64,000 nucleotides of DNA from NCBI GenBank assembly GCA_001774495.1, contig MFAE01000006.1, positions 5,356 through 69,355 of the forward strand, in the 5' to 3' direction. Position numbers and translations under genes: made by a program. How positions within the stretch are numbered: the first letter of the stretch is position 1; each line of letters opens with the position of its first letter. The DNA comes from Candidatus Campbellbacteria bacterium RIFOXYC2_FULL_35_25. Lineage in GTDB: Bacteria; Patescibacteriota; Minisyncoccia; Phycocordibacterales; UBA12079. This document shows, in pieces, positions 34,383 through 62,099 of the stretch. The notes below the pieces were generated by a model. It worked only from the letters and a program-made list of their open reading frames with translations. It ran no database searches and had not been told where the DNA came from.

Positions 34383-34387
34383 CCTAA

Positions 34388-36660: not shown

Positions 36661-36669
36661 AATATTATT

Positions 36670-37884: not shown

Positions 37885-37948
37885 TAATAAAATTAAAAAA
37901 GGGTAGCTCTCAACGAGCTACCCTTTTGCGAAATCAACAAGAGAATGC

Positions 37949-39617: not shown

Positions 39618-41120
39618 TTAGTCTATTATTTTAAAGTCATCAGCACTTAACGTTTCTTCTTCAAGACTAATTTCTTCAGTCATTTTTCTTGAAAAGAGAA
39701 TTCCAACGACTGAAATCAGTATAAGTCCCATAAGTAAAAAAGTCCACTTATTAAATAAATTCAAACCATCTACAGCACCGCCAACAAAAGCTATCTGACT
39801 CTTATTAAAATCTTCAATTTGTGAGTACTCGGTACCCACAATTTCTTTCTTTACTGGTTCACTTTCTGCAGAAACTTCAGGTATCCCCAAAATACCGTTT
39901 CCCTCGGCCCTACTTGTGGGGTTAGCCTCCAAGTTGGCTTTACTTGGGGGTTTAACTCCCAAGTTATTTTTTATTAAAGGATTGGCGACAATTTTCCCAT
40001 ACTGGAAAACGGTTTCTCCGTTTGGATATAATAGGAAAGTTTGATTTATATCAGGGAAATTTAATCCTGTTATTTTTGAAGGTAATATCATTTTTTTATT
40101 AGCCAAAATAATTGTGTCTTTTGGCAAAGTAAAATAATTATTTTCAGACTTAATCATCCACCAAGATAAATTTAACTCGTAGTTAGAATTATTTTGTAAC
40201 TCTAAAAATCCCTTTTCATTGTCTATATTAGAAATAATAATATCAGCGGGCAATGCTTTCACCACGATTCTATCACTAGCAGAATATTTTCCAGAAGAAA
40301 TATTCAAAACCACAACGTATTCGCCAGGATATTGATAATTATGCAAAACATTTTCCCCTTCCTTTGTGTCTCCATCACCAAAACTCCAAACGTAGCGAGC
40401 ATTTTGTAATGGTTCTTTTTCTAAACCAACAGCCAATGCTTCAAAAACAGAGCTGGCCCCCACGATTACATTTTTATCATTTCCAATATCAACAAGAATT
40501 CTTTTTTTCATTAAATCTTCTGTCTCTACCACAAGAGACATTTCACCAGAAACGGTTGCTGCTTCTACCAAAGAGGCTTCTTCATTAAGACTATTTGGCT
40601 GACCGAGAGTCGGACTAACACTTAACCAACTACTACCAACTAACTGAAGAGAATTTCCATCACCATTGGCCCCCATTTCTTTATTGTAAGTAGCAGAGTC
40701 AACCTCAGCTTCATTGATAAGACTTAACGTATCTGTGGTATTACCCAAACTCATAACTGTATCAATAACTGTCCCATTAAAACTTGGGTGTTCACTTCGA
40801 AATAACTCTGCATCACCAGAAAGAATTGCAAAACTACCTGCCCCGATAATTAAAGAGCCCTGCCCACCATTCTTTGGTGGCTCATTTAAATTATGACTAC
40901 TCCCGTCATTAAATTTCCAACCAGTTAGATCAACATCTTCATTTCCATTATTCCAAATTTCAATCCATTCTCTGCCGTCATCTGACCCCTCTATGTCATA
41001 CATTATTTCATTGATAACAATCTGAGCATTCGCAATATTCCCCCAAAATAAAACAAAAACAAAGATAAAACTAAATTTAATCTTTGCTTTCATTTTATTT
41101 CTTTCCAAAATTCTCGTCAT
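39618..41120 (-). CDS. lamin-tail-domain (LTD) surface protein with signal peptide and C-terminal TM anchor
   Basis: Signal peptide MKAKIKFSFIFVFVLFWGNIANA. LTD signature VINEIMYDIEGSDDGREWIEIWNNGNEDVDLTGWKF and a second LTD-like copy. C-terminal hydrophobic anchor. Confidence 0.7.
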   Translation of the reverse strand: MTRILERNKMKAKIKFSFIFVFVLFWGNIANAQIVINEIMYDIEGSDDGREWIEIWNNGNEDVDLTGWKFNDGSSHNLNEPPKNGGQGSLIIGAGSFAILSGDAELFRSEHPSFNGTVIDTVMSLGNTTDTLSLINEAEVDSATYNKEMGANGDGNSLQLVGSSWLSVSPTLGQPNSLNEEASLVEAATVSGEMSLVVETEDLMKKRILVDIGNDKNVIVGASSVFEALAVGLEKEPLQNARYVWSFGDGDTKEGENVLHNYQYPGEYVVVLNISSGKYSASDRIVVKALPADIIISNIDNEKGFLELQNNSNYELNLSWWMIKSENNYFTLPKDTIILANKKMILPSKITGLNFPDINQTFLLYPNGETVFQYGKIVANPLIKNNLGVKPPSKANLEANPTSRAEGNGILGIPEVSAESEPVKKEIVGTEYSQIEDFNKSQIAFVGGAVDGLNLFNKWTFLLMGLILISVVGILFSRKMTEEISLEEETLSADDFKIID

Positions 41121-41156
41121 AACTCAAAAATTCAAAGTCTCTTCTACAAGAAGAAT

Positions 41157-42953
41157 TTAACTTCCCAAAATCTCTCTCAAAATTTTTTCAGGAACTTCTC
41201 TTAATTCCTCTTCCTTTTTGGGAATAGAGGCTTTTTTGTCTTCCTCAGCCTCTTTTAAAGCTTTTTTTAAAGTTTCTTTTAATTTCTCTTTATTCGACTT
41301 TTCGATGTCTTTATTTAAAGTGTCTTGCTTCTCCAATATCTTTTTCTTCTCTCCTACGTCTTCTCCCTTAGTCCTTGAAATACTATCCATTGCACCACTC
41401 AAGGCCTCTTTAAGTGAATTTTTTCCCTCTAATACCGGCCTTTTGGCAGAAGATGGGGTTGTAGGTGTCATTGGTGTTGGTGTTACCTTTGCGGTTGTCG
41501 GCATCGCTTTTGTCGCTGTGGTAGTAGTAGTGGTAGTAGTTGTTGTTGGCGCTTTATTTGCCGAATACTTCTGGCTGTTTCCTTCAAACCTTTTTTGAGG
41601 GGCACCTTCACTAGGCTTCGCTCCCTCTTTCTCGTTAGAAACAACCTTCTTAACCTTGAATGATTTTTCGTGCCAATCTTTTATTTCTTTCTCTACTTCA
41701 GTCTTAGGCCGAGTAAAACGATTTCTAGAAGCAGCAACAATCTCATCCCGAAAAGAGATGCCTTGTTTCTTTATTGGAGGAAGTGTTCTTGCTGAAAAAG
41801 GAGTAGAGCCAACTCCGTCAATCATTAACTTTAAATAGATTTGAGCGAAACCAAGATTAACAATATCATCCATAAGAAAAACTGGCGAAAATTCTTTTTC
41901 AAATATTTCAGCATCAAATGACCCTACTCGGAAAACAATCATAGTCCCGACGTTTCCAAAAACAGCAAAACGAACCACCTCAGGCATTTGCTCAATATAT
42001 TGGTGAGCCATTGTTAAATTTAGTTTATATTTTCTAGCCTGAGATAAAATATCAGCGAAGGAATCATTGGCGAGGTTCTGAAACTCATCTATGTGTAAAT
42101 AAAAATTGGGGTGTTGGGCTAACTCACCCGGAGATAAATCGGCTCTACTCATTGCCGCTAAAAATATTTTTGTTGTCATCATAGAGCCGAGTAAATTTGC
42201 ATTTGACTCCCCAATTTGACCAATGGATAGATTTATCAAAAGGATTTTTCTAGTATCCATAACATTCCTAAAATCAAAAGAAGATTTAACTTGTCCTACA
42301 ATATTTCTGATAATTGAATTTGATGTAAACTGCCCTACTTTATTCAAAACAGCCGAATATGCATCTTTTCTGTATCTATCATCCCAAGCTGCATATTCTT
42401 TTTCCCAAAAGGCTTTAACCGAGGGGTCAGTAACATAGCTGACGACCTCTTTTTGGAAGTCATTATCAGTAAACATCCTTGGCATAGATAACATTGTAGA
42501 ATTTGGGTACTCCAAAAGAGCCAAAATTGTATTGCTGGTGATGTGTTCCATCCTGTCAGAAAAAGTTTCTTCTCCCCAAATCTTTTTAAAGGAAGATAAA
42601 AGACCTTGGGCAACTAGGTGCCTTTTTTCAGGGTCAACATTTTCCATAACGTTGAAAGCAATAGGATGTTCTGTATCAAAAGGAGCAAAATAAATAACAT
42701 CATCTATTCTATTTTCTGGAACGTAATCTAAAAACTTATCTATGGAACCTCCGTGTGGGTCAATAAAGGCAATCCCATTACCATCCAAAATATCCTGCGC
42801 TGCCATATTTTCTAGGAGAGTAGATTTTCCCATTCCTGTCTTTCCTATAACATAAACGTGGCGGGCTCTGTCTAATGCTTTTATTCCAAAAGGAGTTTTT
42901 TTGTTACGAAAATCAGTTTCCGCAAAATATGTAATTTTGTTAAGATCTTCCAT
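41157..42953 (-). CDS. type IV secretion coupling-protein-like ATPase (TraG/TraD/VirD4-like, T4SS-DNA_transf type) with Thr/Pro-rich C-terminal tail
   Basis: Walker A GKTGMGKST, IDPHGG, Walker B HIDEFQNL. C-terminal low-complexity APTTTTTTTTTTATK...TPTPMTPTTPS and a KE-rich tail. Confidence 0.6.
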   Translation of the reverse strand: MEDLNKITYFAETDFRNKKTPFGIKALDRARHVYVIGKTGMGKSTLLENMAAQDILDGNGIAFIDPHGGSIDKFLDYVPENRIDDVIYFAPFDTEHPIAFNVMENVDPEKRHLVAQGLLSSFKKIWGEETFSDRMEHITSNTILALLEYPNSTMLSMPRMFTDNDFQKEVVSYVTDPSVKAFWEKEYAAWDDRYRKDAYSAVLNKVGQFTSNSIIRNIVGQVKSSFDFRNVMDTRKILLINLSIGQIGESNANLLGSMMTTKIFLAAMSRADLSPGELAQHPNFYLHIDEFQNLANDSFADILSQARKYKLNLTMAHQYIEQMPEVVRFAVFGNVGTMIVFRVGSFDAEIFEKEFSPVFLMDDIVNLGFAQIYLKLMIDGVGSTPFSARTLPPIKKQGISFRDEIVAASRNRFTRPKTEVEKEIKDWHEKSFKVKKVVSNEKEGAKPSEGAPQKRFEGNSQKYSANKAPTTTTTTTTTTATKAMPTTAKVTPTPMTPTTPSSAKRPVLEGKNSLKEALSGAMDSISRTKGEDVGEKKKILEKQDTLNKDIEKSNKEKLKETLKKALKEAEEDKKASIPKKEEELREVPEKILREILGS

Positions 42954-43067
42954 ACCTATTAGTATAAAGTTAAAAGGAGAAAGTTAAAAGGGGGAAAATT
43001 GAATTAAAAAATAAACAAAAAACAAACACTCCTGTGTTTGTTTTTTGTTTTCTCTCTTCTTAATTTT

Positions 43068-46000
43068 CTACTGGTTGTAAACATCACAAAAGACTTTCCT
43101 GGTCATAGGGCCAAAGACTCCGTAACCGGTAGTTGCTTCTGTTCCTGAACAAACAACATCATATTTACACTGGTATCTTTGAACAGCTTTGATAGTTAAA
43201 TTTCCGTAATAGCCCGAGTTTATCCCTTTGGGATAAATCTTCTTGTCTAGGGATAAAATTTCTTGTAACTTTTTGACTTGTTCATTTTCCATACCGTAGG
43301 AGAGGGTGGCATTAAAGTATTGTGAGCAAGTCAAACCATCAATTAGTTTTGTTCCTACTGGGTTAACGATTGGGGTTTGGTCTGTTGTGGAAGTAGCAAT
43401 ACTAAAACTAATATTAGCGTCTGTAGTATTAGTATTCCCGACTGTATCTCTGCACTTAATGTAATAATTATGATTACCGTTACTTAATCTACTAATTATA
43501 GCACTGTGAGTATCCCCACTGGCTGTCATTGTTCCTGTCATTGAATCGTAGGCAGTGTTAGCTACTGTGCTGTATTTACAAATGGCTGTTTCATTCGTTG
43601 TGACAGAAAGAATGGTTGAGGTTGTGCCTGCTGGTAATATGCCCGTTGGAATTAAAGAAGAAATAACAGGGGGAACGGTGTCAGTGATCCCTCCACCAAC
43701 AGTAGCTGTGTTTGAATAGGCGCCTAGATTACCCGCCATATCAAAAGCTTTCACAGAATAGGTGTAGTTTGTGTTGGGTATCAGAGCCGTGTCTGAATAA
43801 AAATTAGTTATGGTTGTTGTAAGGGAATTTGTTGGTGTACAAGAAGTCCCGGCACACCTGTATATGTGGTAACCAGCTACCCCTAGATCGTCAGTTGCTG
43901 AAACCCAAGTTAAATTGATTTGGGAAGAAGAAATTGAAGTTGCTTGTAATCTAGCAGGAGCCGATGGAGCGATGGTATCAACCCAAGCGGAATCGTACTC
44001 ATCATTATCTTCTGCAGAAGCACATCCAGGATCAATAGGATAATCTATTTTTCCATCAGAATCATTATCTATTCCATCGTTACATTGATAAATCCCACTT
44101 AGGGCGCAAGTCTGAGTTCCTGTTGTTATTGGTTTAGTTGCTGTGGTACCACAACTGTTAGCATCTGTGCAAGTTCTTGTCTGAGTTTGTGAGTTGTTGG
44201 AACAAACCCCCCAAGCACTCCAAGAGGAGCATGTCCAAGCTTCGATACAAACAGGGGGAGTATAAATACAAGATTGAGTCAAGACTGGTGAGCCTCCAAC
44301 ACACCCTGTTGGAGTTGAAGATATAATTGTTCTTGATTGTGTTCCATTAGATTGGCAAGTTCCGAAAGTAGAATAGGTGAAGTTAGTGCAGGTGACAGGT
44401 GAAGTAATTGTATATTTTTCCAACCAATTTTCTGCTGACCAACCGTCAGGAGCACTGTCGTAATTCACTTGCCACCACCAGTAACCATCACTAGATACAG
44501 GACCTCCAATAATTGTCCCTAACAAACCAACGGCTTGGGTACCTAAATAAGTTCCCGAAGGTGTAGCGCGGACGTTGAGAGTAGTGGTTGTTTTGGCACG
44601 ATCGTTAATAGCTAGTTTTGTGGAAGCTACCAAAGTAGCTGTGCAAGCTTGTGTTTGAGTAACGGACGGTTTGTTCGTAGTAGTGCCACAACTATTGACA
44701 TCGGTGCAAGCCCTGGTTTGGGTTCGGGAACTATTGTTGCAAGCGGACCAAGCACTCCAAACAGAACACGACCATGATTCGGTGCAAGTAGCAGATGAAG
44801 TGGTTAGGTATTTTTCTAAATATTGTTCCACTGACCAACCGTCAGGAGCATTGTCGTAATTCACTTGCCACCACCAGTAACCATCACTAGATACAGGACC
44901 TCCAATAATTGTCCCAAAAGCCCCTAGAACTTGAGAACCCAAGAGTGTTCCTGTTATTGAAGGAGTGGCACGGACATTAAGAGTGGTTGTTGTTTTAACG
45001 TTGTCATTGATAGCTAGTTTGGTGGAAACTGTTGGGGTAATTGTACAAGACTGAGTGGTCACTGGTGAGCCACCGGTACAACCTGTCGGGGAGGAAGTAA
45101 TAACGGTTCTTGTTTGAGTATTGTTGGATTGACAGGTATTCCAGCTTGAATAGGTGAAAGAGGTGCAGGTGGTAGGAGTTGGGGTTGGATTGATAGCAGA
45201 ACTAGATGGCATCCCGTCCCGTACTTCCCAATCATCAACTTGTCTAGAAAATGTACCTGTCTCTTCTGCATCAATAGATGGGGCAGCCACATAATAAACA
45301 TTATTAGGTGTCCAAACTCCGTCTGCATAATCGGCATCCAACTTTAAAGTACCATCGTACCAGAATTTACTAATCCCTGTAGAAAATTTAATATAGAATT
45401 CGTAATGATGCCATTTTCCGTCAGTCATATTAGGAGTGCCAATGTATTTACTCAACTCTATCATTGTCCCATTGCCTTTGGCAGAGTAATATATTGTACC
45501 ATCATTCATCATTGTGTAGTGAACATAACTTTGAACACCATTCCAATGAGGATAAAATAATTTGAAATTTTCAAAAGTATCGGTGCTTGTGAAATTTGGA
45601 TACCGCATCCAAAAAGACACGTGCATCTCATCTGATGGCCAAGGAGATGGGATATTATTCTTCCAAACAAGATGGGCCGAATTCACATTTCCAGAACTAA
45701 ATGAATATCCAGTTCCATTCCGGCCTACAGCATTAAGATTATAGTCTGGAGGAGAAAGCACAGACCAGTTTGGTCCATACACAATTAATCTACTGTCAAC
45801 CTCTTGGTCATCAAAATTTTCCTGAAAAAGAAGAGAGGAGCCAGAAACAGTAGCAGAAGTACAAGCTTGCGATCCAGTTGTGGTTGGTTTACTTGTGGTT
45901 GTACCACAACTATTGACATCGGTGCAAGCCCTGGTTTGGGTTTGGGAACTATTGTTGCAAGCGGACCAAGCACTCCAAACAGAACACGACCATGATTCGG

Positions 46001-47225
46001 TGCAAGTAGCAGATGAAGTGGTTAGGTATTTTTCTAAATATTGTTCCACTGACCAACCGTCAGGAGCATTGTCGTAATTCACTTGCCACCACCAGTAACC
46101 ATCACTAGATACAGGACCTCCAATAATTGTCCCAAAAGCCCCTAGAACTTGAGAACCCAAGAGTGTTCCTGTTATTGAAGGAGTGGCACGGACATTAAGA
46201 GTGGTGGTTGTTTTGACACGATCGTTAATAGCTAGTTTTGTGGAAACTGTCTGGGAAGTGGTGCAAGATTGGGTTTGGGTGGTGATTGGTTTACTGGTGG
46301 TGGTGCCACAAGAGTTGGCATCGGTGCAGGTTTTGGTTTGAGATTGGGAGTTATTGGTGCAAGTGGACCAAGCGCTCCAAGAGGTGCACGACCATGATTC
46401 GGTGCAGATGGTAGATGGAGGGGTAGTTGATATGGATGATGACATAAACGCAAATGGAGGAAGTCCATCCCAAACCTCATAATCATCAATCGCCCATCCT
46501 CCATGACCATCCGCAGAGTCACATGTCGCTTTCAAAGCAGGAGACCTGTCAAGTCCCGCGCCATTATAATGCCCGGTTATTATATTGTTCCTATCAGAAA
46601 CTATTTCATTATTAATAGCCATCACGAAATGACCATCGGGATTGCTATGGCTTGTTCCGGATGAAAGTTTCATATAAATCTCGACCTTCATCCAATCGCC
46701 ACGAGTATAACTGGCTCCAAACCAATCACTGCCTATTGGTGTCCCAGATCCTCCCTGCCACACCAACCCCACTCCCGTATCTGAAAAAGAGGTGAATGCT
46801 ATCTCCGTGTGTCCTAAACTTCCACCATCAAACCAAAGTTGTTTGGTGTTATAGTATGTATTTCCTACACAATTGGAATAATTTGCATCAAACTTCACCC
46901 AATATTTTATATATAACTCATCCGTTGCAGGAAAGGGCGATGAAGGAAATGCAATATTAAGATCACCACCACTATCATCTAAATTATGCGTGCTCCATGC
47001 TGCAAGGCCCGTATGCCCCGGCACATAAGTTACTATATGGTCAGGATTGCTCGGATGATTATACCAATATTCATACGCGTGGATATAGCCCAACGAATCA
47101 GTAAGGTTGTTTTCAAAATCCACTTTGCTGATTTGATTGGCGGCCTGGCTAACTTCTGTCTTGAATAGAAAAATTCCAACAATGAAAATAATAACTAAAG
47201 AATACCTGGTTATTTTTTTTGTCAT
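43068..47225 (-). CDS. giant secreted multidomain surface protein: ConA-like jelly-roll x2, thrombospondin-type-1-like Cys repeats x4-6, SH3b x3, FN3, C-terminal peptidoglycan-binding domain
   Basis: Signal peptide. Repeats CTESWSC.VWSAWSACNNSSQTQTRACTD.NSCG (WSxWS...RxRxC, TSP1-like), SH3b units (LNVRATPSITGTLLG...WWWQVNYD), FN3 (PSAPARLQATSISSSQINLTW), and a PG_binding_1-like segment (LSYGMENEQVKKLQEIL). Confidence 0.6.
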   Translation of the reverse strand: MTKKITRYSLVIIFIVGIFLFKTEVSQAANQISKVDFENNLTDSLGYIHAYEYWYNHPSNPDHIVTYVPGHTGLAAWSTHNLDDSGGDLNIAFPSSPFPATDELYIKYWVKFDANYSNCVGNTYYNTKQLWFDGGSLGHTEIAFTSFSDTGVGLVWQGGSGTPIGSDWFGASYTRGDWMKVEIYMKLSSGTSHSNPDGHFVMAINNEIVSDRNNIITGHYNGAGLDRSPALKATCDSADGHGGWAIDDYEVWDGLPPFAFMSSSISTTPPSTICTESWSCTSWSAWSTCTNNSQSQTKTCTDANSCGTTTSKPITTQTQSCTTSQTVSTKLAINDRVKTTTTLNVRATPSITGTLLGSQVLGAFGTIIGGPVSSDGYWWWQVNYDNAPDGWSVEQYLEKYLTTSSATCTESWSCSVWSAWSACNNSSQTQTRACTDVNSCGTTTSKPTTTGSQACTSATVSGSSLLFQENFDDQEVDSRLIVYGPNWSVLSPPDYNLNAVGRNGTGYSFSSGNVNSAHLVWKNNIPSPWPSDEMHVSFWMRYPNFTSTDTFENFKLFYPHWNGVQSYVHYTMMNDGTIYYSAKGNGTMIELSKYIGTPNMTDGKWHHYEFYIKFSTGISKFWYDGTLKLDADYADGVWTPNNVYYVAAPSIDAEETGTFSRQVDDWEVRDGMPSSSAINPTPTPTTCTSFTYSSWNTCQSNNTQTRTVITSSPTGCTGGSPVTTQSCTITPTVSTKLAINDNVKTTTTLNVRATPSITGTLLGSQVLGAFGTIIGGPVSSDGYWWWQVNYDNAPDGWSVEQYLEKYLTTSSATCTESWSCSVWSAWSACNNSSRTQTRACTDVNSCGTTTNKPSVTQTQACTATLVASTKLAINDRAKTTTTLNVRATPSGTYLGTQAVGLLGTIIGGPVSSDGYWWWQVNYDSAPDGWSAENWLEKYTITSPVTCTNFTYSTFGTCQSNGTQSRTIISSTPTGCVGGSPVLTQSCIYTPPVCIEAWTCSSWSAWGVCSNNSQTQTRTCTDANSCGTTATKPITTGTQTCALSGIYQCNDGIDNDSDGKIDYPIDPGCASAEDNDEYDSAWVDTIAPSAPARLQATSISSSQINLTWVSATDDLGVAGYHIYRCAGTSCTPTNSLTTTITNFYSDTALIPNTNYTYSVKAFDMAGNLGAYSNTATVGGGITDTVPPVISSLIPTGILPAGTTSTILSVTTNETAICKYSTVANTAYDSMTGTMTASGDTHSAIISRLSNGNHNYYIKCRDTVGNTNTTDANISFSIATSTTDQTPIVNPVGTKLIDGLTCSQYFNATLSYGMENEQVKKLQEILSLDKKIYPKGINSGYYGNLTIKAVQRYQCKYDVVCSGTEATTGYGVFGPMTRKVFCDVYNQ
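44440..46270. repeat. intragenic tandem duplication: about 1.2-kb period, about 315 bp near-identical (44687-45000 vs 45893-46206), plus a diverged third copy
   Basis: ORF-track frames 44671..44859 and 45880..46077 translate to identical 62-aa peptides 1209 nt apart. Direct reading shows only a few mismatches across about 315 bp. Confidence 0.8.
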
Positions 47226-52977: not shown

Positions 52978-54918
52978 TTACCTAACAAATTCATGCCCAT
53001 AACCTGCTCCGGGGTCTGTACTTAATCGAGTAGAAGCACCGGCTTTTGTATTACTCAAAGAATCACCAGTAAATTTGTCAGTACCAGTAATAGTAACATC
53101 CCCAGTTAGGAGGGGTACTAGAGTAAGGTGCGTCAAACTTGGCAAAAAAGCAATCTGGAAAGATATTTCTTTCCTATTATTAACAATACCAACGCCTGGT
53201 TTTATGTCTCCAACATCCCAAATAACTTCACCGCCAACAGGATTGTATGTTATTTTTTCTGAATTAGGAGAAACAACTCCCATCCAACGAACATAAGTGG
53301 GAAGTGAAGAAACAACTCTAACACCACCAGCCTCATTCGTTGTATTGGTGACAGCCCAAGTCACTGTATAGGTTGTTTCTGTCTCAACTTCCGGAGGAAT
53401 TGGACCACTGTTAACAAAGGGGCCAGAATAATATGTGGCATTGGGGGTTACCCTTAGGTCAGTAGAAAATCTAAGGATCTTAGAAACGGAAGAATTTATC
53501 TCTTCCTGCGTCCCCACTTCCGAAATACGGTTTCCTTTTGCGCTAATGGTTAAACGAGCTTCTGGATTCACTAAGTTACCTCTCTCGGAAACATCTAGGG
53601 GTTTAAAAGAAAAACTAAAACGACCGTTCGCTCCGGGGAGGATTTCTGACAATTCACCGTTGGTACTTTTGTTCCAAATAATAGTATTATCGACGGAACG
53701 ATAATATCCCTTGCCGGGAGAAACAGTATTTTTGTCTAAAATCCCCCCTTCCAATTTTATGTTAATTTCACCACCAATAATACTAGTGGAGGAATTATTA
53801 GCCCAGATTACGTCTACTCTTACCGTACCGTTACCGCTCAATGAATATTCTTGGGAGAGAGCCCCATTTACAGCAATATCAACACCAATAAATGGTTTTT
53901 CTATAGAAATAGTTTTAATCAAAGAAGCAAACAAAGCACCGATTTCTTTCTCATCTTTTCGGTCTTGGTTCCCTGCACTAAACCGAAAAACCCTTTCTTC
54001 TTCATTCTGCCCCGAAACAATACCTTTTATTTTAACAACACTCTTATCAGCAGAACCCCCTTCCATTTTCCATATATTATCCCCGTAAGTCGGTTTTGGC
54101 TCCGAAGAGATAAACTTGAAACCAAAAGGATATTCTACCACTAATAAAAGACTTTCTACTGATCTCTCAGAATCGGAAACCACACTAACAGAAAAATCCA
54201 TTTCCTGCCCAGAAATAACCCTCTCCATGGGACTAATGATTAAGTCAATTGGTGAAGAACTTATGTTTATACTATACTTCCTTTCTTTAAAGAAAATAGC
54301 GTTGGAATCTGCAATACGATATTCTAGACTTATAAGGATGTCTTTGTCGCTATTTCTCTCCCCATACAAAACAGACCTAACTTCCTTTCTGATACTTCTC
54401 CCAGAAGGAACCACCCCTAAGGAAACCCTCTCACTTCTCAAGGCTTTCCCAGGCTCGCTAGCGGAATAGGTTCCTTCTGGGTATTTAATCACCAAATCTG
54501 CGACTTCTAAATTTATTGGGTTGTTGTTGGTAACCGTAATTTTCAGAGAAAATTCACCCCCACTTTCCATAGAAGATGGACCAATAACAGATATATCAAC
54601 ATTCTCCGTAGAAACCTTATTATTTCCCAGCCAAACCATCAAAAAAACAAACCCGACAGACAGCATCAAAAAAATAACAGCTATGAATAATATCTTTTCT
54701 GAAAAATTTTTAGTTTTAGGTTTTCTTCTTTCAAAAAAACCGTCTTCCTCTTCCTCTTGTCGAGAATCATTCCAGCCAGATTTTATGTCATATTTTCTGC
54801 GAGAAAAAGATGCTCTGTCTTTAGAAAAACGGGTATTCCGGGAATAGAGCCCCGCTTTAACCCCCTCAATCCTATCACTTTTTTTACTATCATCAGTCAT
54901 ACAGTAAAAGTATAACAA
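52978..54918 (-). CDS. hypothetical membrane-anchored protein with large beta-rich extracytoplasmic domain
   Basis: 646 aa, single N-proximal TM (ILFIAVIFLMLSVGFVFLMVWLG). No recognised domain. Confidence 0.4.
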   Translation of the reverse strand: MLYFYCMTDDSKKSDRIEGVKAGLYSRNTRFSKDRASFSRRKYDIKSGWNDSRQEEEEDGFFERRKPKTKNFSEKILFIAVIFLMLSVGFVFLMVWLGNNKVSTENVDISVIGPSSMESGGEFSLKITVTNNNPINLEVADLVIKYPEGTYSASEPGKALRSERVSLGVVPSGRSIRKEVRSVLYGERNSDKDILISLEYRIADSNAIFFKERKYSINISSSPIDLIISPMERVISGQEMDFSVSVVSDSERSVESLLLVVEYPFGFKFISSEPKPTYGDNIWKMEGGSADKSVVKIKGIVSGQNEEERVFRFSAGNQDRKDEKEIGALFASLIKTISIEKPFIGVDIAVNGALSQEYSLSGNGTVRVDVIWANNSSTSIIGGEINIKLEGGILDKNTVSPGKGYYRSVDNTIIWNKSTNGELSEILPGANGRFSFSFKPLDVSERGNLVNPEARLTISAKGNRISEVGTQEEINSSVSKILRFSTDLRVTPNATYYSGPFVNSGPIPPEVETETTYTVTWAVTNTTNEAGGVRVVSSLPTYVRWMGVVSPNSEKITYNPVGGEVIWDVGDIKPGVGIVNNRKEISFQIAFLPSLTHLTLVPLLTGDVTITGTDKFTGDSLSNTKAGASTRLSTDPGAGYGHEFVR

Positions 54919-56436: not shown

Positions 56437-59400
56437 TTATTTATTAAGTTTCAATTTAAAAACTAAATCATCGATTTTTATTATTTCTGCGTCAGTTCTG
56501 CACAACTCCGCGTTTGTTCCGCATTTGATTTCTTCTATTCCAGCTACTTTTTTCAAATCTACTTCAAATTTTTTAATAAGATCTTCCCCCTCTTTGTTTG
56601 TCTCAACTTCTAATTCAACCAAATCACTTGGAACAAGATTTTCTTGCTTCCTTAATTTCTGAATATTTCTTAGCAACTCTCGATAACGTCCTTCTCCTTT
56701 TAATTCCGGGGTGATTGTTGCATCTAATTCTACTTTTTCTTCATCGTGTTCCCCAAAAACGACCATTTTCACATTTACCTCATCTTTAATTACTTCAACC
56801 ATCTGTTCATCCATAACTGTCGCTTGTGGACTGTAGGCAGTAAGACTTTGTAGTGGTTGTCTCACCTTAATTCCAAGTTCTGCCCTTGCCTCCAAAGCCA
56901 AAGAAACGATCTCTTTAACTTTTTTCATGCTTTCCAAAATAGCTTCATCGATGTTTACTTCTTTGGTCCAACTCTCGAGGTGCACACTTTCCAAGCCATC
57001 ATTACCTTTAACTTTCTGATAAATTTCTTCCGCCAAGAACGGCATAAAAGGAGCAATAACTTTTGAAAACTCTCTCAAAACAAATTGTGTTGTTGCCAAA
57101 GCATAATCTCGGTCCTTGTCATTACCCCCCTTAAATCTATCTCGAGACCTTCTAATATACCAGGTCGACAATTCCTCAACAAAATCCATAATTGGTCGAG
57201 AAGCCCTGTCTAATTCATAATTATTTAACCCTATGGAAACTTCTTTAATCAATTGATTTAATTTAGTTAATATCCATTTATCCAAAATGTTTTCACTGTC
57301 TTGCGGGTTAACTTTTGTTTTGGAATCTTCCTTGTACAACTCATAAAAAGAATAAACATTCTTAACTTTCAAAATAATTTTCTTCAAAATCTCATCTACT
57401 CCCTTTTCTGAAAAGTTTAAATCTTCTCCCCGAACAATCGGAGAACTAATCATATAATAACGCATCGCATCAGCTCCATATTTATCAAGGATGTATGAGA
57501 TATCAGGATAATTTTTTAAACTTTTTGACATCTTCTTTCCATCTTCCGCCAACACCATGCCGTTCACAATTACATTCTTATAAGAAGTTTTCCCAAACAT
57601 AGCTGTCGCCAATACTATAGACGTATAAAACCAGCCACGAGTTTGATCGGTTCCTTCGGCGATAAAATCTGCAGGAAAACCAATTCCTTTTTCAGGGTTA
57701 AACTTGTCTAAGTTTTCAAAAGGATAATGATTAGAAGCATAAGGCATCGCCCCCGACTCAAACCAACAATCAAAAACCTCTGCGATTCTTTTCATTTTTC
57801 CACCACACTCGCAATCAAATTCAACCTTATCAATATAAGGCATATGTAAATCTGTTTCATAATTTTTATTATGAGGTAATGGGGCAAAATCCAATTCACG
57901 AATTTCAGCATTTCCAAAAAGATTTTCTTCCTCTTTAAAAGCAACTGTTTTCTCGGCATTTAACCCTTTTGCTACGGAAAGCAAAAACCAAGCAGGATAT
58001 TCGTGAGTAACAATTAAGATATTCTTATCTGAATACTTTTTATCTATGTCGTAAATAAAATCTCCCACTCTATTTTTTGTCTCATTAAGACTTTCTCCGT
58101 TAGAAGTAGCCTGTGTAAATTTCCCCAGTAAAGAGCCGGCAAAACTTCTATACTCATCTACATTTTTACCCTCGAGATCACCTACTTGGGCTTCGATAAT
58201 TCTTTCATCAAAAATAATATCGGTTTTTTTAATTCCGATTCCTTCGGAGATTATTTCAGCGGTTTCTTTTGTTCTAACAAAAGGTGAAGAAATGATTACA
58301 TCTATTTTTTTCTTCTTTAGTTCCTCTAGAGCTTCTTTTACTTGCTCTTTTCCTACTTCTGTTAAATGATGAGGATTCGTTGCTTTTGAACTACAAACAT
58401 TCAAGGTATTATTTTCTGCCTCACCGTGGCGAATCACAAAGTAATTATTTGTTCCTTTTGTCTCTTTTCTTAATTCATCAATCGAACCAATTATTTTTAT
58501 CTTTCCACAACCATTATCTTGAGAATTTGTGTTTTGTGTTTCGTGTTTCGTTTGGTTTTTGTGTTCTACACTTTGTATTTTCCTAGTTTGGCAACGCCAA
58601 ACTGGTAACGGAGCTCCCCAAAAACGAGTTCTGGAAATTGCCCAGTCACGAGCTCCTTCAAGCCACTTACCAAACCTTCCGTCTCGAATATTTTCTGGCA
58701 CCCAATTAACTTCTTGATTAGCTTTAATCATTTCATCCTTAATTCCTGTTACTTTTAGAAACCAAGAAGAGGTCGCGTAGTTAAGAAGTGGGGTGTGACA
58801 TCTCCAGCAATGAGGATAAGAGTGTTCAATTTTTTCTTTTGAAAACAACACGCTACCCCCCTCTCTATTAGCCAAAAGTTTTATCATCTCAATATCAGTT
58901 GCCATGTGGTCATCCTTAGGCTTTACGTACAAACCAGCTAACCCATCCCCCACTTCTGATTTAAATTTTCCATCAATTGAAACATGCTGAACAAAAGGTA
59001 AGCTTTCTTTTTTACCCAACTCCATATCATCAGAACCAAAAGCAGGAGCAATATGAACAATCCCTGTTCCATCTTCGGTAGTTACAAAATCAGCTCCGTA
59101 AATTTTCCAACCATTTTTGTGATTTTCCAAACTTTTGTCTTTTGAATAATAATCAAAAAGTGGTTTGTAAGATTTTCCAATTAATTCTGAACCCTTAGTT
59201 ATCTCATTAACATTTTTTACAAGATGACCTAAAAAATCAAACATGTCTTCGTCTTCTCTTGGAGTTATCGGTGTTTTTTTATTTTCAAAAATTTCTTTAG
59301 CAACCCAATAATATTCTTTTTTAAAATTACTTTCGTAAGTTTCTCCTGGCTCAATTTTTTTTACTTCGTTTGTATTTTCAATTTTTAAATAATCAATATT

Positions 59401-60120
59401 TGGGTGAACTGCCAAAGCGACGTTTCCAGGCAAAGTCCACGGAGTAGTTGTCCAAGCCAAAACAAAAGTTCCGGGCTCGTCTGCTAATTCAAACTTAACT
59501 GTCGCTGACAAATCTTTGATATCTTTATACCCCTGATTAACTTCAAAGTTTGAAAGGGTTGTTTCACACCGAGGGCACAAATGCATTGCTTTGTGTCCTT
59601 CGTAAATTAAATTTTTGTCATAGATAGTTTTAAAAATATGCCAGATAGACTCAGAGTAAGAAGTGTCCATTGTCTGGTAACTAGCATTCATATCCACCCA
59701 TCTACCTGTTCGTGGAATAATCTTTTTCCAATCAACATCATAACGAAGCACACTATTCTTGGCCGCTTCATTAAATTTTTCTACTCCATAATCATAGATG
59801 TCCTGTTTGTTTTTGAAACCTAGTTCATCTTCAATTAAATTTTCAATCGGCAAACCATGACAATCCCAGCCCCAACGACGAGAAACTTTTTTACCAAGCA
59901 TTGTTTGATAACGAGGAATGATATCTTTCATGGTTCCTGCCAAAATATGACCATAATGAGGTAAACCAGTAGCAAAAGGAGGTCCATCATAAAAAACAAA
60001 AGAGCCGTTGGGAGATTCCTTCTCGGTAGATTTTTCAAAAATTTTATTATCCTGCCAAAATTTCAGAACTTCTTCTTCACTTTTAGCAGTCTCGGATTTA
60101 TTATTATTTTTATCTTCCAT
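56437..60120 (-). CDS. ileS: isoleucyl-tRNA synthetase carrying an inserted histidine-phosphatase (PGAM-like) domain
   Basis: HIGH (PHYGHIL) and KMSKS (KMSKSLKNYPD) motifs, editing domain (WTTTPWTLPGN). About 250 extra residues (aa ~513-768) containing RHGEAENN...SSPFVRTKETAEII...IVTHEYPAWF lie between WRCQ and CECGG. Confidence 0.85.
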   Translation of the reverse strand: MEDKNNNKSETAKSEEEVLKFWQDNKIFEKSTEKESPNGSFVFYDGPPFATGLPHYGHILAGTMKDIIPRYQTMLGKKVSRRWGWDCHGLPIENLIEDELGFKNKQDIYDYGVEKFNEAAKNSVLRYDVDWKKIIPRTGRWVDMNASYQTMDTSYSESIWHIFKTIYDKNLIYEGHKAMHLCPRCETTLSNFEVNQGYKDIKDLSATVKFELADEPGTFVLAWTTTPWTLPGNVALAVHPNIDYLKIENTNEVKKIEPGETYESNFKKEYYWVAKEIFENKKTPITPREDEDMFDFLGHLVKNVNEITKGSELIGKSYKPLFDYYSKDKSLENHKNGWKIYGADFVTTEDGTGIVHIAPAFGSDDMELGKKESLPFVQHVSIDGKFKSEVGDGLAGLYVKPKDDHMATDIEMIKLLANREGGSVLFSKEKIEHSYPHCWRCHTPLLNYATSSWFLKVTGIKDEMIKANQEVNWVPENIRDGRFGKWLEGARDWAISRTRFWGAPLPVWRCQTRKIQSVEHKNQTKHETQNTNSQDNGCGKIKIIGSIDELRKETKGTNNYFVIRHGEAENNTLNVCSSKATNPHHLTEVGKEQVKEALEELKKKKIDVIISSPFVRTKETAEIISEGIGIKKTDIIFDERIIEAQVGDLEGKNVDEYRSFAGSLLGKFTQATSNGESLNETKNRVGDFIYDIDKKYSDKNILIVTHEYPAWFLLSVAKGLNAEKTVAFKEEENLFGNAEIRELDFAPLPHNKNYETDLHMPYIDKVEFDCECGGKMKRIAEVFDCWFESGAMPYASNHYPFENLDKFNPEKGIGFPADFIAEGTDQTRGWFYTSIVLATAMFGKTSYKNVIVNGMVLAEDGKKMSKSLKNYPDISYILDKYGADAMRYYMISSPIVRGEDLNFSEKGVDEILKKIILKVKNVYSFYELYKEDSKTKVNPQDSENILDKWILTKLNQLIKEVSIGLNNYELDRASRPIMDFVEELSTWYIRRSRDRFKGGNDKDRDYALATTQFVLREFSKVIAPFMPFLAEEIYQKVKGNDGLESVHLESWTKEVNIDEAILESMKKVKEIVSLALEARAELGIKVRQPLQSLTAYSPQATVMDEQMVEVIKDEVNVKMVVFGEHDEEKVELDATITPELKGEGRYRELLRNIQKLRKQENLVPSDLVELEVETNKEGEDLIKKFEVDLKKVAGIEEIKCGTNAELCRTDAEIIKIDDLVFKLKLNK

Positions 60121-60259: not shown

Positions 60260-61624
60260 TTAAACAACAAAACCAAACAAAGGGCTTTTTCTATCAATGA
60301 CCTGATACTTAAAGCCTAATTTATCTAATCTTTTTAGTAACAGATTAAAATTTTCTTTTCTCGCCAATTCAACTCCAACCAAAGCTGGGCCGGACTCTTT
60401 ATTATTTTTCTTAAAATATTCAAACAAAACAATATCATCCCCAGGGCCCAAGGTTCTCTCGATAAATGTTTTCAAAACCCCAGCTCTTTGAGGGAACTCA
60501 ACTATAAAGTAATGCTTTAGTCCTTGATATTCCAAACTTCTCTCGATAATCTCAGGGTATCTACTAATATCATTGTTACCACCGCTTACAATACACACGA
60601 CAGTCTTCCCTTGTATCTTTTCGGCTAATTGCTCAATTGCAGATAAAGCTAAAGCCCCAGCAGGTTCCGTAACAATTCCATTATTTTGATAAAGCAAAAT
60701 CATTTCCTGACAAACCCTTCCTTCGGGAACTAGCAAAACTTTGTCTACGATTTTTTTACAAATTTCAAATCCTAATTTCCCAACAGTTTTAACGGCAGTC
60801 CCGTCTATAAACTTATCAATCTTATCTAAGGTAACTACCTCTCCTTTTTTTAATGATTGAAACATAGAAGGAACTCCCTCTGATTCTACCCCGATTAATT
60901 TAATCTTTGGGTATTTTGATTTCACATAGGTACCCAAACCAGAAATTAACCCTCCTCCCCCAATGGGAACAAAAATATAATCAGGGCTTTCTTCTAGTTG
61001 TTCTAAAATTTCTACGCCCACAGTCCCTTGCCCGGCGATAACCAACTCATCATTAAAAGGATGAATAAAAACCTTGTTTTTATTATCACTAAAATTCTTT
61101 GCTTTATGGCAAGCCTCATCAAATGTATCTCCAACAAGCACTATAGAAACCCATTTACCGCCGAACCTCCTCGCTCTTTCAATTTTTTGTTTAGGCGTAT
61201 TCTGTGGCATAAAAATATACCCTTTTATTTTTAACTTACTACAAGCGAAAGCAAAACCTTGAGCATGGTTCCCCGCGCTGCCACAAACAACCCCTCTTCT
61301 TTTTTCTTCAGGAGTTAACAGGGATATTTTATTGTAGGCACCCCTAAGTTTGTAAGATCTAACTGATTGCAAATCTTCTCTTTTTAAATAAACTTTTGCT
61401 TTATATTGCTTTGATAGCCTCTCGTTAAGCTGAAGGGGTGTTTTGATAACTATATCTTTTAGCCGGCCATAGGCTTCTTCTATTAATTTGGGAGTAATTT
61501 GTGATTTCATATATTTATTATTTATGAGCAATACAAGAGATTTCAACCAAAACATCCTTTGGAAGTCTCGCAACTTCAATAGTTGCTCGAGCGGGATATG
61601 GCTGTTGGGCAAATTTTTCTGCAT
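60260..61624 (-). CDS. ilvA: threonine ammonia-lyase (threonine dehydratase) with C-terminal regulatory domain
   Basis: PLP-lysine motif SYKLRGAYNK, glycine-rich PLP-phosphate loop GGGGLISG, C-terminal ACT-like domain. The real start is probably internal MKSQITP (about 61510), which avoids overlap with ridA. Confidence 0.8.
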   Translation of the reverse strand: MQKNLPNSHIPLEQLLKLRDFQRMFWLKSLVLLINNKYMKSQITPKLIEEAYGRLKDIVIKTPLQLNERLSKQYKAKVYLKREDLQSVRSYKLRGAYNKISLLTPEEKRRGVVCGSAGNHAQGFAFACSKLKIKGYIFMPQNTPKQKIERARRFGGKWVSIVLVGDTFDEACHKAKNFSDNKNKVFIHPFNDELVIAGQGTVGVEILEQLEESPDYIFVPIGGGGLISGLGTYVKSKYPKIKLIGVESEGVPSMFQSLKKGEVVTLDKIDKFIDGTAVKTVGKLGFEICKKIVDKVLLVPEGRVCQEMILLYQNNGIVTEPAGALALSAIEQLAEKIQGKTVVCIVSGGNNDISRYPEIIERSLEYQGLKHYFIVEFPQRAGVLKTFIERTLGPGDDIVLFEYFKKNNKESGPALVGVELARKENFNLLLKRLDKLGFKYQVIDRKSPLFGFVV

Positions 61625-61898
61625 AAATTTTATTCATCTCAACAAAATTATTCATATCAGAGAGATAAACTTCTGTTTTAACAACCTGAGACAAACTGGA
61701 ACCAGCCTCAGACAAAACAATCTTCAAATTTTCAATAACTCTTTCCGTTTGTTCTTTTATATTTTCACCCGCAATTTCACCAGTAGCAGGATCTACGGAA
61801 ATTTGCCCAGAACAAAAAATAAAATTATCAACTTCAATTGCTTGAGAATAAGGGCCAACGACTTGAGGGGCTTTGTTTGTTTTTATTTCTTTAATCAT
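61518..61898 (-). CDS. ridA: RidA/YjgF-family reactive-intermediate (enamine/imine) deaminase
   Basis: 126 aa, KTNKAPQVVGPYSQAIEV...CSGQISVDPATGE...ARATIEVARLP. Canonical RidA, including the Arg in ARATIEV. Confidence 0.85.
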   Translation of the reverse strand: MIKEIKTNKAPQVVGPYSQAIEVDNFIFCSGQISVDPATGEIAGENIKEQTERVIENLKIVLSEAGSSLSQVVKTEVYLSDMNNFVEMNKIYAEKFAQQPYPARATIEVARLPKDVLVEISCIAHK

Positions 61899-62025: not shown

Positions 62026-62099
62026 TGGCTGGGGGGCAGGGATTCGAACCCCGACAAGCAGACCCAGAATCTGCGGTCCTACCATTAGACAAACCCCCA
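62026..62099 (-). tRNA. tRNA-Gln (anticodon CUG), CCA encoded
   Basis: Hand fold of the reverse complement: acceptor TGGGGGT/CCCCCCA (7:66 U-C mismatch), D-arm GTCT-AATGGTA-GGAC, anticodon arm GCAGA-TTCTGGG-TCTGC, T-arm CGGGG-TTCGAAT-CCCTG, discriminator G, CCA. Confidence 0.75.

Follow-up and report, generated by a model that had tools for sequence, protein, structure and literature searches.

A histidine-phosphatase domain nested in the zinc-binding CP3 subdomain of isoleucyl-tRNA synthetase in CPR bacteria

Introduction

Aminoacyl-tRNA synthetases are among the best-studied enzymes, and catalytic domains nested in their cores are rare besides the editing domains. The window analyzed here (the whole stretch of DNA, 64 kb in length) encodes an isoleucyl-tRNA synthetase (IleRS) in which an earlier note had recognized a histidine phosphatase. 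Why would an enzyme that charges tRNA-Ile carry a phosphatase in its core, where did this domain come from, and on what might it act? In the literature on CPR bacteria, we found no account of a synthetase, IleRS or another, that carries a GNAT or histidine-phosphatase domain, and the word phosphatase is absent from a 2026 survey of 96,219 IleRS architectures. New here are the gene order with a stand-alone phosphatase upstream of ileS, the further internal insertion sites, and the extra domains in CPR IleRS.

Results

A normal type-2 IleRS carries the insert

The ileS gene is a complete minus-strand ORF, insert and stop codon included (Table 1). The whole protein scored 846.9 bits against the curated equivalog TIGR00392 (cut-off 621.4), while the ValRS, LeuRS, and MetRS models remained under their own cut-offs on the 1227-aa protein. 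We observed the class I signatures HYGH (aa 55-58) and KMSKS, as well as the editing-domain motifs TTTPWT (aa 224-229) and GTGIVHIAPAFG (~351-362). Pfam recognized tRNA-synt_1, Anticodon_1, and DUF5915 on the same protein, the last of these at 49.7 bits versus 27, indicating a type-2 C-terminal domain. A Foldseek comparison of the AlphaFold2 (AF2) model with the PDB retrieved IleRS2 structures (8C8V, E=9e-77; 1ILE, TMt 0.92). Apart from the insert, the protein is a normal type-2 IleRS (IleRS2), for which isoleucine activation and tRNA-Ile charging are predicted; no second ileS was detectable within the 64-kb window.

The ORF has the 1227 aa given in the earlier note and is longer than usual, and we traced the excess to ~193 aa of phosphatase, a 27-aa low-complexity loop, and ~45 aa extra in the editing domain. 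The editing-region segment is missing in 8C8U and in the IleRS of loci where the phosphatase is a separate gene, and its pLDDT falls below 50 at aa 254-263 and 283-294 of the AF2 model. A relative (P0016) has a GNAT domain at the site of this segment. The N-terminal part closes with the strand PVWRC, whose C510 is the first zinc ligand of CP3, and the C-terminal part also holds the anticodon-binding domain and the type-2 C-terminal domain.

Table 1. Features of the ileS locus, in coordinates of the window
Feature	Coordinates	Strand	Content or evidence
ileS, complete ORF	56437..60120	-	TIGR00392, Pfam, Foldseek of the AF2 model
IleRS N-terminal part, aa 1-510	58591..60120	-	First Rossmann half with HYGH, CP core, editing domain, CP2
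Extra editing-region segment, about aa 253-300	59221..59364	-	Gap in the 8C8U alignment (q253-308); poorly predicted
Low-complexity loop QTRKIQSVEHKNQTKHETQNTNSQDNG, 27 aa	58510..58590	-	AC-rich simple sequence between zinc ligands C510 and C538
Rest of first CP3 half, aa 538-556	58453..58509	-	C538, hairpin, short helix IGSIDELRKE leading into the insert
His_Phos_1 insert, aa 557-749	57874..58452	-	Catalytic R564, H565, N571, R616, E643, H706
Junction and second CP3 half, aa 750-774	57799..57873	-	PHN end, DLHxPYID, zinc ligands C770 and C772 (CECGG)
IleRS C-terminal part, aa 775-1227	56437..57798	-	DCWFESG 784-790, second Rossmann half, KMSKS 863-867

The insert is a complete histidine phosphatase with a conserved junction

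Pfam His_Phos_1 (PF00300) matched aa 561-729 (E=2.6e-31; 109.2 bits versus a gathering cut-off of 21.7), spanning profile positions 2-170 of 194 and lying between the two halves of the tRNA-synt_1 match. A family-specific HMM covered aa 558-750, and the last strand of the domain, NAEIRELDF, is visible in the AF2 model. The insert has the alpha/beta fold of the solved histidine-phosphatase members. When aligned with the solved IleRS2 structure 8C8U, query residues 516-749 stand in place of ~15 residues, and the insert site is the zinc-binding CP3 subdomain. The claim of a complete branch-1 histidine-phosphatase fold inside IleRS was borne out by the profile match, the structural placement, and the presence of the catalytic residues. 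The span that had been proposed, 57817-58584, corresponds to aa 513-768 and so brackets the insert. The motifs quoted for it also lie where they were said to lie: WRCQ at 508-511, RHGEAENN at 564-571, SSPFVRTKET at 611-620, and VTHEY at 704-708, with CECGG (770-774) and then DCWFESG (784-790) following C-terminal of the insert.

The predicted catalytic residues are strongly conserved. R564, the nucleophile H565 (codon 58426-58428), R616, and E643 occur in 121/121 sequences, H706 and N571 each in 120/121, and the catalytic set is retained in every domain copy at every IleRS site, tandem arrays included. Mean pairwise identity was 0.50 for the insert (anticodon-binding domain, 0.60; core, 0.68), values that place the insert among sequences under constraint. 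Judging from the conserved residues, the insert is predicted to be a complete, apparently active branch-1 histidine phosphatase.

The loop QTRKIQSVEHKNQTKHETQNTNSQDNG (aa 511-537), which had been described as a linker after the WRCQ zinc motif, actually lies inside the first CxxC, between C510 and C538. It is predicted to be disordered (pLDDT 30-47) and was seen in no homolog; homologs have a plain CxxC at that position. A PHN motif (P749-H750-N751) spans the C-terminal junction of the insert, and P749, H750, N751, E755, D757, H759, P761, D764, C770, and C772 are each at least 90% conserved. This pattern, PHN...E.D.H.P..D, has a pLDDT of 93-95 in the AF2 model.

The architecture is not an assembly artifact or an intein

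An identical protein was called on 7 contigs, and PF00300 was present in 120/120 best homologs (Paceibacteria/Parcubacteria), all of which have this architecture. Among related loci, 65/80 contain one unbroken ORF of >1100 aa; most of the other 15 are truncated by contig ends, and some were missed solely through variant motifs. On these grounds we rejected a misassembly or frameshift, and the chimeric join that the earlier note wished to have checked is excluded. The insert is in frame and free of stops, as that note had read it.

An intein was rejected as well. The C-terminal junction of an intein needs HN followed by C, S, or T, whereas the residue after PHN in the homologs is K, R, H, E, Q, D, A, Y, or G, and Pfam reported no intein family at E up to 0.01. 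The idea that the insert is an artifact or is dead (a chimera, a frameshift, an intein, or the spacer left by a decayed pseudo-enzyme) draws on a prior suspicion of MAG assemblies and on a low-complexity loop that looks slippage-prone. Set against the seven contigs, the shared architecture, the intact related ORFs, the junction, and the invariant catalytic residues, it has next to no chance of being right, and we regard it as already refuted.

A long association of the phosphatase with IleRS

Relatives of the insert are encoded at up to 560 loci of species-representative genomes, and 80/80 of those retained cover the IleRS flanks. The closest stand-alone relatives are found in the order argS-phosphatase-ileS-recO at all six loci with enough flanking sequence, and the ileS beside a stand-alone phosphatase gene is insert-less. 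One such stand-alone protein (P0246) and the insert share 39% identity across the whole length. The gaps in these loci range from -7 to +70 bp, and one locus has a single intervening ORF of 330 aa; a deletion of 1-7 bp would suffice to create an N-terminal fusion of the phosphatase to IleRS. The split-form loci lie in a cluster of translation genes (smpB, infC, rpmI, rplT, argS, ileS, and glyS). A functional link to the adjacent ilvA and ridA was rejected as a general feature, these genes being near ileS in 0/80 related loci.

Fused forms are not restricted to CP3. In Gracilibacteria and Peregrinibacteria, two further internal positions of IleRS host the domain, in some cases as 2-4 copies, giving at least three internal insertion sites in CPR lineages; two old paralogous copies (sites B and C) are retained together in some IleRS. 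None of 345 domain occurrences was a terminal fusion. Neighbor-joining trees served as rough distance trees and were used for coarse grouping only.

Some IleRS of sister lineages have additional domains of the GNAT, P-loop kinase, serine-hydrolase, or HAD-phosphatase type. GNAT is combined with His_Phos_1 in two of them (P0016 and P0395), and an HAD phosphatase takes the place of His_Phos_1 in a single sequence. Two others (P0270 and P0472) have AAA_33/AAA_18 P-loop kinase domains, with a weak match to Pnkp1 (4XRP, E=0.056); against the PDB, the kinase-like domain of P0270 gave weak, non-discriminating matches to APS kinase, shikimate kinase, Pnkp1, and PezT.

Overall, CPR bacteria have long kept the phosphatase together with IleRS: some Paceibacteria have it as a separate gene directly before ileS, others, the present one among them, as a CP3 insert, and Gracilibacteria and Peregrinibacteria at the other sites. 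The label "lineage-specific" holds in that the architecture is common to 120/120 Paceibacteria/Parcubacteria homologs, but the partnership itself spans several CPR classes and at least three sites. The insert most likely originated from the gene directly upstream of ileS in relatives rather than from a mobile element, the argS-phosphatase-ileS-recO loci favoring the upstream gene. A domesticated mobile insertion is the least supported of the earlier note's suggestions, the others being the candidate roles of a regulatory or moonlighting module and of a nucleotide phosphatase. The split and fused forms together offer a clean natural example of a neighboring gene turned nested domain.

The insert belongs to a phosphatase subgroup and is not a mutase

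The nearest folds to the insert are the small-molecule phosphatases PspA, GpgP, PhoE, and CobC, and the structure comparison put it closer to the capped enzymes for small substrates than to the SixA type, which has no cap. Motifs specific to cofactor-dependent phosphoglycerate mutase (dPGM) are ERHYG, HGN, and a C-terminal tail; the insert has EAQVG and THEY where dPGM has ERHYG and HGN, and it failed every curated dPGM cut-off (dPGM_arch, 102 versus 225; GpmB, 57 versus 261; pgm_1, 27.9 versus 81.7). We therefore rejected dPGM. The description "phosphoglycerate-mutase-like" is right about the branch-1 superfamily but not about a mutase: the insert is of the phosphatase subgroup (PspA/PhoE/CobC-like). 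It also scored under the cut-offs for PspA (75.8 versus 350), CobC (77.2 versus 162.9), and SixA (35.3 versus 74.5), as did the stand-alone relatives, and it reached no curated equivalog cut-off among those tested.

These affinities bear on the suggestion that the domain is a metabolic phosphatase unrelated to charging, for example a phosphatase for phosphoserine or sugar phosphates, a nucleotidase, or the phosphoglycerate mutase of the cell. The linkage would then reflect co-expression in a streamlined genome, and the insertions would follow from ancestral gene adjacency. The nearest relatives are indeed ordinary metabolic phosphatases, and the curated "bifunctional RNase H/acid phosphatase" (85 bits to the insert) provides a precedent for a fusion of seemingly unrelated parts. 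The N- and C-terminal strands of the domain adjoin each other in the AF2 model and the domain would thus tolerate insertion into loops, while the varied sites and copy numbers argue against one strict geometry. Furthermore, the window has a glycerate-to-pyruvate module (2-hydroxyacid dehydrogenase, enolase, PPDK/PEP synthase, and glycerate 2-kinase) and no PGM gene within its 64 kb. However, the dPGM identity is specifically excluded and the PspA and CobC cut-offs are not reached. The link to ileS has been kept across deep CPR divergence, as operon or insertions, in a translation-gene cluster and with a conserved junction, and terminal fusions are absent though they are the easiest to create. 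We consider a metabolic role of this kind unlikely.

Discussion

A possible clean-up activity on a ligand of IleRS

Our preferred reading, held tentatively and at somewhat less than an even chance, is that the insert works as a clean-up enzyme, a phosphomonoesterase directed at a small IleRS ligand. H565, positioned by R564, R616, and H706, would attack the phosphomonoester with E643 as the acid; a phospho-histidine intermediate would form, and phosphate would then be released. The substrate would be a small ligand, probably resembling a nucleotide or an amino acid, that either hinders IleRS or arises there, such as an inhibitor, an antimetabolite, or a by-product. A rigid, conserved junction would hold the phosphatase at IleRS and so add a hydrolytic clean-up activity whose logic is comparable to that of the CP1 editing domain. 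In favor of this reading, the catalytic set is invariant and the partnership with IleRS has been kept in fused form, in adjacent genes, and at three sites; sister IleRS add other small-molecule-modifying domains (GNAT, P-loop kinase, serine hydrolase, and HAD). By analogy, the MccH phosphoramidases may serve as a precedent: they are dedicated hydrolases that destroy aminoacyl-adenylate mimics, and Parcubacteria homologs have been tested.

Several points count against it. We know of no natural IleRS inhibitor with an essential phosphomonoester. Nearly all members of these clades have the domain, and it is old in them, which fits housekeeping better than an arms race, and tethering brings little kinetic gain for a freely diffusing small molecule. 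Recurrent insertion could partly reflect the mutational proximity of an ancestrally adjacent gene, and the HAD replacement rests on one sequence. In addition, most stand-alone phosphatases are strongly basic, with a median of +8.5 net charges per 100 aa, comparable to SmpB or IF3 from these loci, which points towards RNA binding, although this charge is a hint only, confounded as it is by genome-wide composition.

Healing of tRNA ends and regulation as alternatives

The basic character of the stand-alone forms would suit a second, somewhat unlikely explanation, that the phosphatase heals the end of tRNA-Ile by removing a 3'- or 2'-phosphate or a pyrophosphate remnant from A76 while IleRS holds the tRNA. 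If true, a synthetase would contain a novel repair activity that restores the chargeable CCA end. ToxSAS toxins attach pyrophosphate to the 3'-CCA terminus of tRNA, and FaRel2 selects tRNA-Gly and tRNA-Thr; phosphorylated CCA ends are thus a real lesion that can be tRNA-specific (PMC11559606; 10.1101/2021.04.30.441581). The operonic stand-alone phosphatases, with a median pI of 9.8 and a net charge of up to +26, match the RNA-binding proteins of neighboring genes in basicity, and four of the six are more basic than their own IleRS; against this, two of the six lack a basic character, and in some of these genomes the proteins are basic in general. The embedded domain has the charge of its host, and IleRS would supply the tRNA binding. 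All insertions are internal and fall within or next to the catalytic domain, and the junction is conserved and rigid, which suggests that placement matters. The sites nevertheless differ around the Rossmann fold and thus presumably cannot all be equally near A76, and no contact between CP3 and tRNA is described in the IleRS literature examined.

Also in favor of end healing, the gene lies within the cluster of translation genes, and the AAA_33-type kinase of some relatives would give a kinase-plus-phosphatase pair as in polynucleotide kinase-phosphatases, with the weak Pnkp1 match noted above; the 1227-aa protein itself is not of that type, having no kinase domain in Pfam. Against it, no branch-1 histidine phosphatase is, to our knowledge, known to act on RNA ends, and the nearest structural neighbors act on small metabolites. 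The presence of up to 3-4 copies per protein and the joint retention of the B and C paralogs are hard to explain for a single RNA end, and why IleRS alone would need such healing has no explanation.

The co-occurrence of kinase and GNAT domains in IleRS of related lineages also raises the idea of a regulatory module, which we judge quite improbable. The domain would dephosphorylate IleRS or a partner, or sense a phosphorylated metabolite, tuning isoleucine charging to metabolic state, and in some lineages it would be paired with the embedded kinase or acetyltransferase. The domain appears rigidly docked in the AF2 model. Yet its likeness to capped small-substrate enzymes and its low SixA score speak against this role, most lineages have no kinase, several copies would be superfluous for action on the host protein, and a phosphosite is without evidence.

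Implications

The phosphatase has been kept with IleRS in several CPR classes, as an operon partner, at three insertion sites, and in multiple copies. Such retention implies that dephosphorylation of some kind is coupled to isoleucine charging, a step that this large group of very small, uncultured bacteria seems to require and that is absent from current models of translation. Conceivably, though we have considerable doubt, IleRS is a multi-tool in CPR bacteria, with the phosphatase as a third quality-control or repair activity that heals a phosphorylated tRNA-Ile 3' end or destroys a phosphorylated poison, and with the GNAT, kinase, serine-hydrolase, and HAD domains as further protective modules. 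The identity of the substrate could reveal a novel route of tRNA repair, an unrecognized class of natural poisons of IleRS along with a resistance built into the enzyme, or how ultra-small symbionts couple translation to metabolism.

Comparison with known systems

Among small branch-1 histidine phosphatases, PspA/iPSP1 (4IJ5), PhoE (1H2E/1EBB), CobC (6E4B and 6NRU), GpgP (6S2Q), and the riboflavin-pathway HFP (9MMH) share only 22-27% identity with the insert, which differs in its family-specific HHLT and PHN junction motifs and in being encoded inside or immediately upstream of ileS. The histidine-phosphatase domain of TFIIIC tau55 (2YN0 and 6YJ6) is structurally more distant and lies N-terminally in a eukaryotic transcription factor. 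In the mycobacterial bifunctional RNase H/acid phosphatase (NF005567), a CobC-like phosphatase is likewise fused to a nucleic-acid enzyme, but end to end and with another partner in another lineage, and the insert is well under the family cut-off of 326 bits.

A curated precedent for IleRS with an extra enzyme domain is NCBIfam NF040702 (ileS_w_GNAT); the window protein lacks GNAT and scored 299 bits versus a cut-off of 1999, and our search turned up no curated model of a phosphatase-bearing IleRS. The MccH phosphoramidases and the tRNA hydrolases that reverse toxSAS action follow the same logic, hydrolysis of a phosphorus-containing poison of aminoacylation, but they belong to other families (HIT and HD), are separate proteins, and have no known link to IleRS; the likeness is one of function alone.

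CP3 is known to vary as a subdomain, and it binds zinc in Thermus IleRS (PMC7191050). A parallel in architecture is the CP1 editing domain among the class Ia connective peptides of IleRS, ValRS, and LeuRS, which is likewise hydrolytic and nested in a loop of the Rossmann fold. CP1 is universal and hydrolyzes mis-acylated tRNA or adenylate, whereas the insert is a predicted phosphomonoesterase found in CPR only. Unlike CP1, the phosphatase can be a separate gene and occupies different sites by lineage.

A histidine-phosphatase domain splits the CP3 subdomain of IleRS

An earlier note, made from the sequence alone, had described a phosphatase domain inside isoleucyl-tRNA synthetase (IleRS) at 57817-58584 (aa 513-768). 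Pfam analysis of the 1227-aa protein recovered this domain as His_Phos_1 (aa 561-729, E=2.6e-31), flanked on both sides by the two pieces of tRNA-synt_1 and accompanied by Anticodon_1 and the type-2 C-terminal DUF5915; the motifs quoted in the note were all found where it had placed them. The next-best NCBIfam matches of the ORF, after the one listed in the table, were mupirocin-resistance-type (type 2) IleRS models. We also placed the insert, as the note had proposed, by alignment to a solved structure: query residues 308-515 and 750-1130 aligned with 274-464 and 480-856 of the type-2 IleRS 8C8U, with ~234 query residues replacing ~15. The insertion lies in CP3, the subdomain that bridges CP2 and the second Rossmann half and binds zinc in Thermus IleRS (PMC7191050), with the phosphatase (aa 557-749) between the zinc-knuckle halves. 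All four zinc ligands (C510, C538, C770, and C772) were retained in 118-119 of 121 sequences, and the C-terminal junction (F745, P749-H750-N751, E755, D757, H759, P761, and D764) was at least 90% conserved.

AlphaFold2, run on aa 1-1130 with an alignment of 119 sequences, gave a model of pLDDT 89.5 and pTM 0.84, with 92-97 pLDDT across the insert and both junctions. The synthetase part of this model superposed on solved IleRS2 (8C8V, E=9e-77; 1ILE, TMt 0.92), indicating a predicted host fold that is intact. Loop 514-534 and editing-domain segments 254-263 and 283-294 were disordered in our model. The low-complexity stretch reported in the note is present but had been misplaced, for it splits the CxxC (C510/C538); this loop is exclusive to our sequence and its identical copies, and relatives show CxxC there. 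The position of the extra editing-domain segment looks like a fourth hot spot for insertions, since in the relative P0016 it is occupied by a GNAT (Acetyltransf_3) domain.

Features of the window
Feature	Position	Strand	Remarks
Glycerate-to-pyruvate module	429-6655	-	2-hydroxyacid dehydrogenase, enolase, PPDK/PEP synthase, glycerate kinase (DUF4147+MOFRL)
IS200-like transposase (Y1_Tnp) ORF	14663-15418	-	beside murB
Glycosyltransferase, polysaccharide-synthesis, and O-antigen-ligase-like genes	20005-38000		long stretch; Polysacc_synt, Glycos_transf_1, Wzy_C+TPR; two genes also match 'GT4-conflict' family
Large proteins	39618-47225 and 52978-54918	-	1385 aa with fn3 + SH3b; 500 aa with LTD + PKD; 646-aa DUF11/CLIPPER protein, conserved beside recO in relatives
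TrwB-like type IV coupling-protein homologue	41157-42953	-
ileS ORF, 1227 aa	56437..60120	-	TIGR00392, 846.9 bits vs cut-off 621.4 (NCBIfam)
27-aa disordered low-complexity loop between C510 and C538	58510-58590	-	AC-rich simple sequence, gaaacac-like repeats
Extra, poorly predicted segment, ~45 aa, editing-domain region	59221-59364	-	8C8U alignment, AlphaFold2 model
Threonine dehydratase (PALP + Thr_dehydrat_C; ilvA) + RidA	60260-61898	-	directly upstream of ileS
tRNA-Gln (CUG)	62026-62099	-	sole RNA gene detected within 64 kb

The fusion recurs across related genomes

We reject an artefact as very improbable. The identical 1227-aa protein occurs on seven contigs of public assemblies (longest 88 kb), and 120/120 best database homologues (53-70% identical, labelled by source as Patescibacteria, Pacebacteria, Campbellbacteria, or Parcubacteria) carry PF00133 + PF00300; their lengths, which the note had suggested surveying, are 1150-1325 aa. 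Furthermore, a pattern scan with one genome per species identified at least 560 loci in which a relative of the insert is encoded. The best 80 all span IleRS flanks and are drawn from Paceibacterota as well as Zambryski-, Lloyd-, Taylor-, Yonath-, Campbell-, Wolfe-, and Vogelbacteria, and one ORF >1100 aa covers synthetase and phosphatase in 65 of them; most of the other 15 are interrupted by contig ends. No break in GC content was seen along the insert.

Stand-alone genes and further insertion sites

When 1.84 billion representatives were searched exhaustively with a profile, 345 proteins matched with E of 1e-30 or below, the majority with the phosphatase embedded in IleRS and a subset being stand-alone proteins of 189-208 aa that match the phosphatase part alone; at least 317 stand-alone proteins of this type exist. 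In all six members with enough flanking sequence (P0246, P0265, P0298, P0341, P0349, and P0392), the gene lay between argS and an insert-less ileS (931-983 aa) on the same strand, with gaps from a 7-bp overlap up to 70 bp and a single intervening ORF in one locus. Two more stand-alone genes lie on short contigs: P0239 (5.6 kb, neighbours without family matches) and P0267 (965 bp). Over the insert's full length, P0246 shares 39% identity with it. Outside the insert, the split-form IleRS of locus L082 and the window's enzyme share 56% identity; the zinc knuckle of the L082 enzyme is short and intact. Downstream of split-form ileS are recO and other neighbours known from the window, whose order ileS-recO-large DUF11 protein-glyS is common to 51, 46, and 38 of 80 fused loci. 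At split-form locus L088 (9716-10567), a bAvd gene and a reverse transcriptase (RVT_1) just 3' of ileS look like a diversity-generating retroelement.

The domain also occupies site B, between DCWFESG and KMSKS (P0243; second copy of P0194), and site C, past KMSKS and ahead of the anticodon-binding domain (second copies of P0243, P0224, and P0258). P0194 has all three sites filled, and four copies occur in P0124. Of the 265 full-length proteins, 242 hold one copy, 20 two, 2 three, and 1 four. A search with P0243 as query assigned the site B and C variants to Gracilibacteria, Peregrinibacteria, and Peribacteria, where site C is the usual arrangement (e.g., P0404, 1220 aa, 1.3-Mb contig). Every copy at every site retains the catalytic residues. 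In a rough neighbour-joining tree, the CP3 (A), B, C, and stand-alone domains formed separate groups, and B and C copies from one protein sorted by site, which argues that they are old paralogues. All 345 occurrences in long proteins were internal, with no terminal fusion among them.

IleRS of these three lineages gather extra domains (e.g., P0395, P0446, P0456, P0472, and P0478; locus L084), namely GNAT acetyltransferase, AAA_33/Zeta-like P-loop kinase, serine hydrolase, and DUF559/MTES_1575 endonuclease-like domains, reaching up to 1859 aa. P0456 is the single case of a HAD phosphatase at site B without a histidine phosphatase. An IS200-like Y1_Tnp match lies inside the giant P0478.

Catalytic residues and possible function

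R564, H565, G566, R616, E643, G647, and E676 were invariant in 121 sequences, and N571 and H706 were each present in 120; mean pairwise identity was 0.50 for the insert, 0.60 for the anticodon-binding domain, and 0.68 for the core. The inserted phosphatase thus looks active. A mutase was rejected: the insert scored 102 against the dPGM_arch cut-off of 225 and has no mutase-type motifs. Nor did it reach the other curated equivalog cut-offs (CobC 77/163, PspA 76/350, SixA 35/74.5), so its sequence assigns it to an uncharacterised phosphatase subfamily.

The data show the insert to be a complete and conserved phosphomonoesterase domain, probably active, that is selectively retained together with IleRS. 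We infer that its substrate is connected with isoleucine charging because the gene pair is conserved across deep divergence, there are three independent insertion sites, the mutationally easy N-terminal fusion is absent, the junction is conserved and rigid, and the neighbourhood consists of translation genes. A metabolic phosphatase unrelated to IleRS and riding on ileS is our third-ranked reading, and an unlikely one.

Glucosyl-3-phosphoglycerate phosphatase (21.8), PhoE (21.1), a riboflavin-pathway phosphatase (21.1), and CobC (20.5) were the higher-scoring matches of the insert, above the protein phosphatases of the superfamily (tau55 15.4, SixA 15.3, PGAM5 14.5, Sts-2 14.1); a profile search of PDB sequences left this order unchanged. 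A small substrate is suggested both by these neighbours and by the accessory domains, and our leading, if tentative, reading is a clean-up or guarding activity against a small ligand. Hydrolases that destroy adenylate-mimicking antibiotics are a known precedent. A regulatory role ranks fourth and seems improbable.

The charge of the domain points instead to RNA: most stand-alone forms are strongly basic (median +8.5 per 100 aa, like nearby SmpB or IF3), and this charge is gone once the domain is embedded in IleRS. Healing of tRNA-Ile ends, our second choice, is less probable than ligand clean-up, though somewhat ahead of a riding metabolic enzyme. Toxins are known to damage tRNAs by phosphorylating their 3' ends (PMC11559606; 10.1101/2021.04.30.441581).

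Other genes of the window

The glycerate module supplies 2-phosphoglycerate, and phosphoglycerate mutase is not needed. Threonine dehydratase is the entry enzyme of the isoleucine pathway, and such organisms are usually without amino-acid synthesis; the ilvA-ridA pair occurred in none of the best 80 of at least 560 related loci. The longest ilvA ORF runs ~100 nt into ridA, so its true start is probably further downstream. The 1385-, 500-, and 646-aa proteins are probably surface-exposed.

Relation to known systems

The domain pair is already in public annotation, as Pfam matches on database entries and in a JGI name, for example 'isoleucyl-tRNA synthetase/phosphohistidine phosphatase SixA/...'. 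Our literature search found no paper describing or studying an IleRS-phosphatase association, and a survey from 2026, covering 96,219 IleRS architectures, makes no mention of one; the association would be of real interest for synthetase and CPR specialists. It resembles the NCBI-curated IleRS-with-GNAT family, in which IleRS likewise carries an extra enzyme domain.
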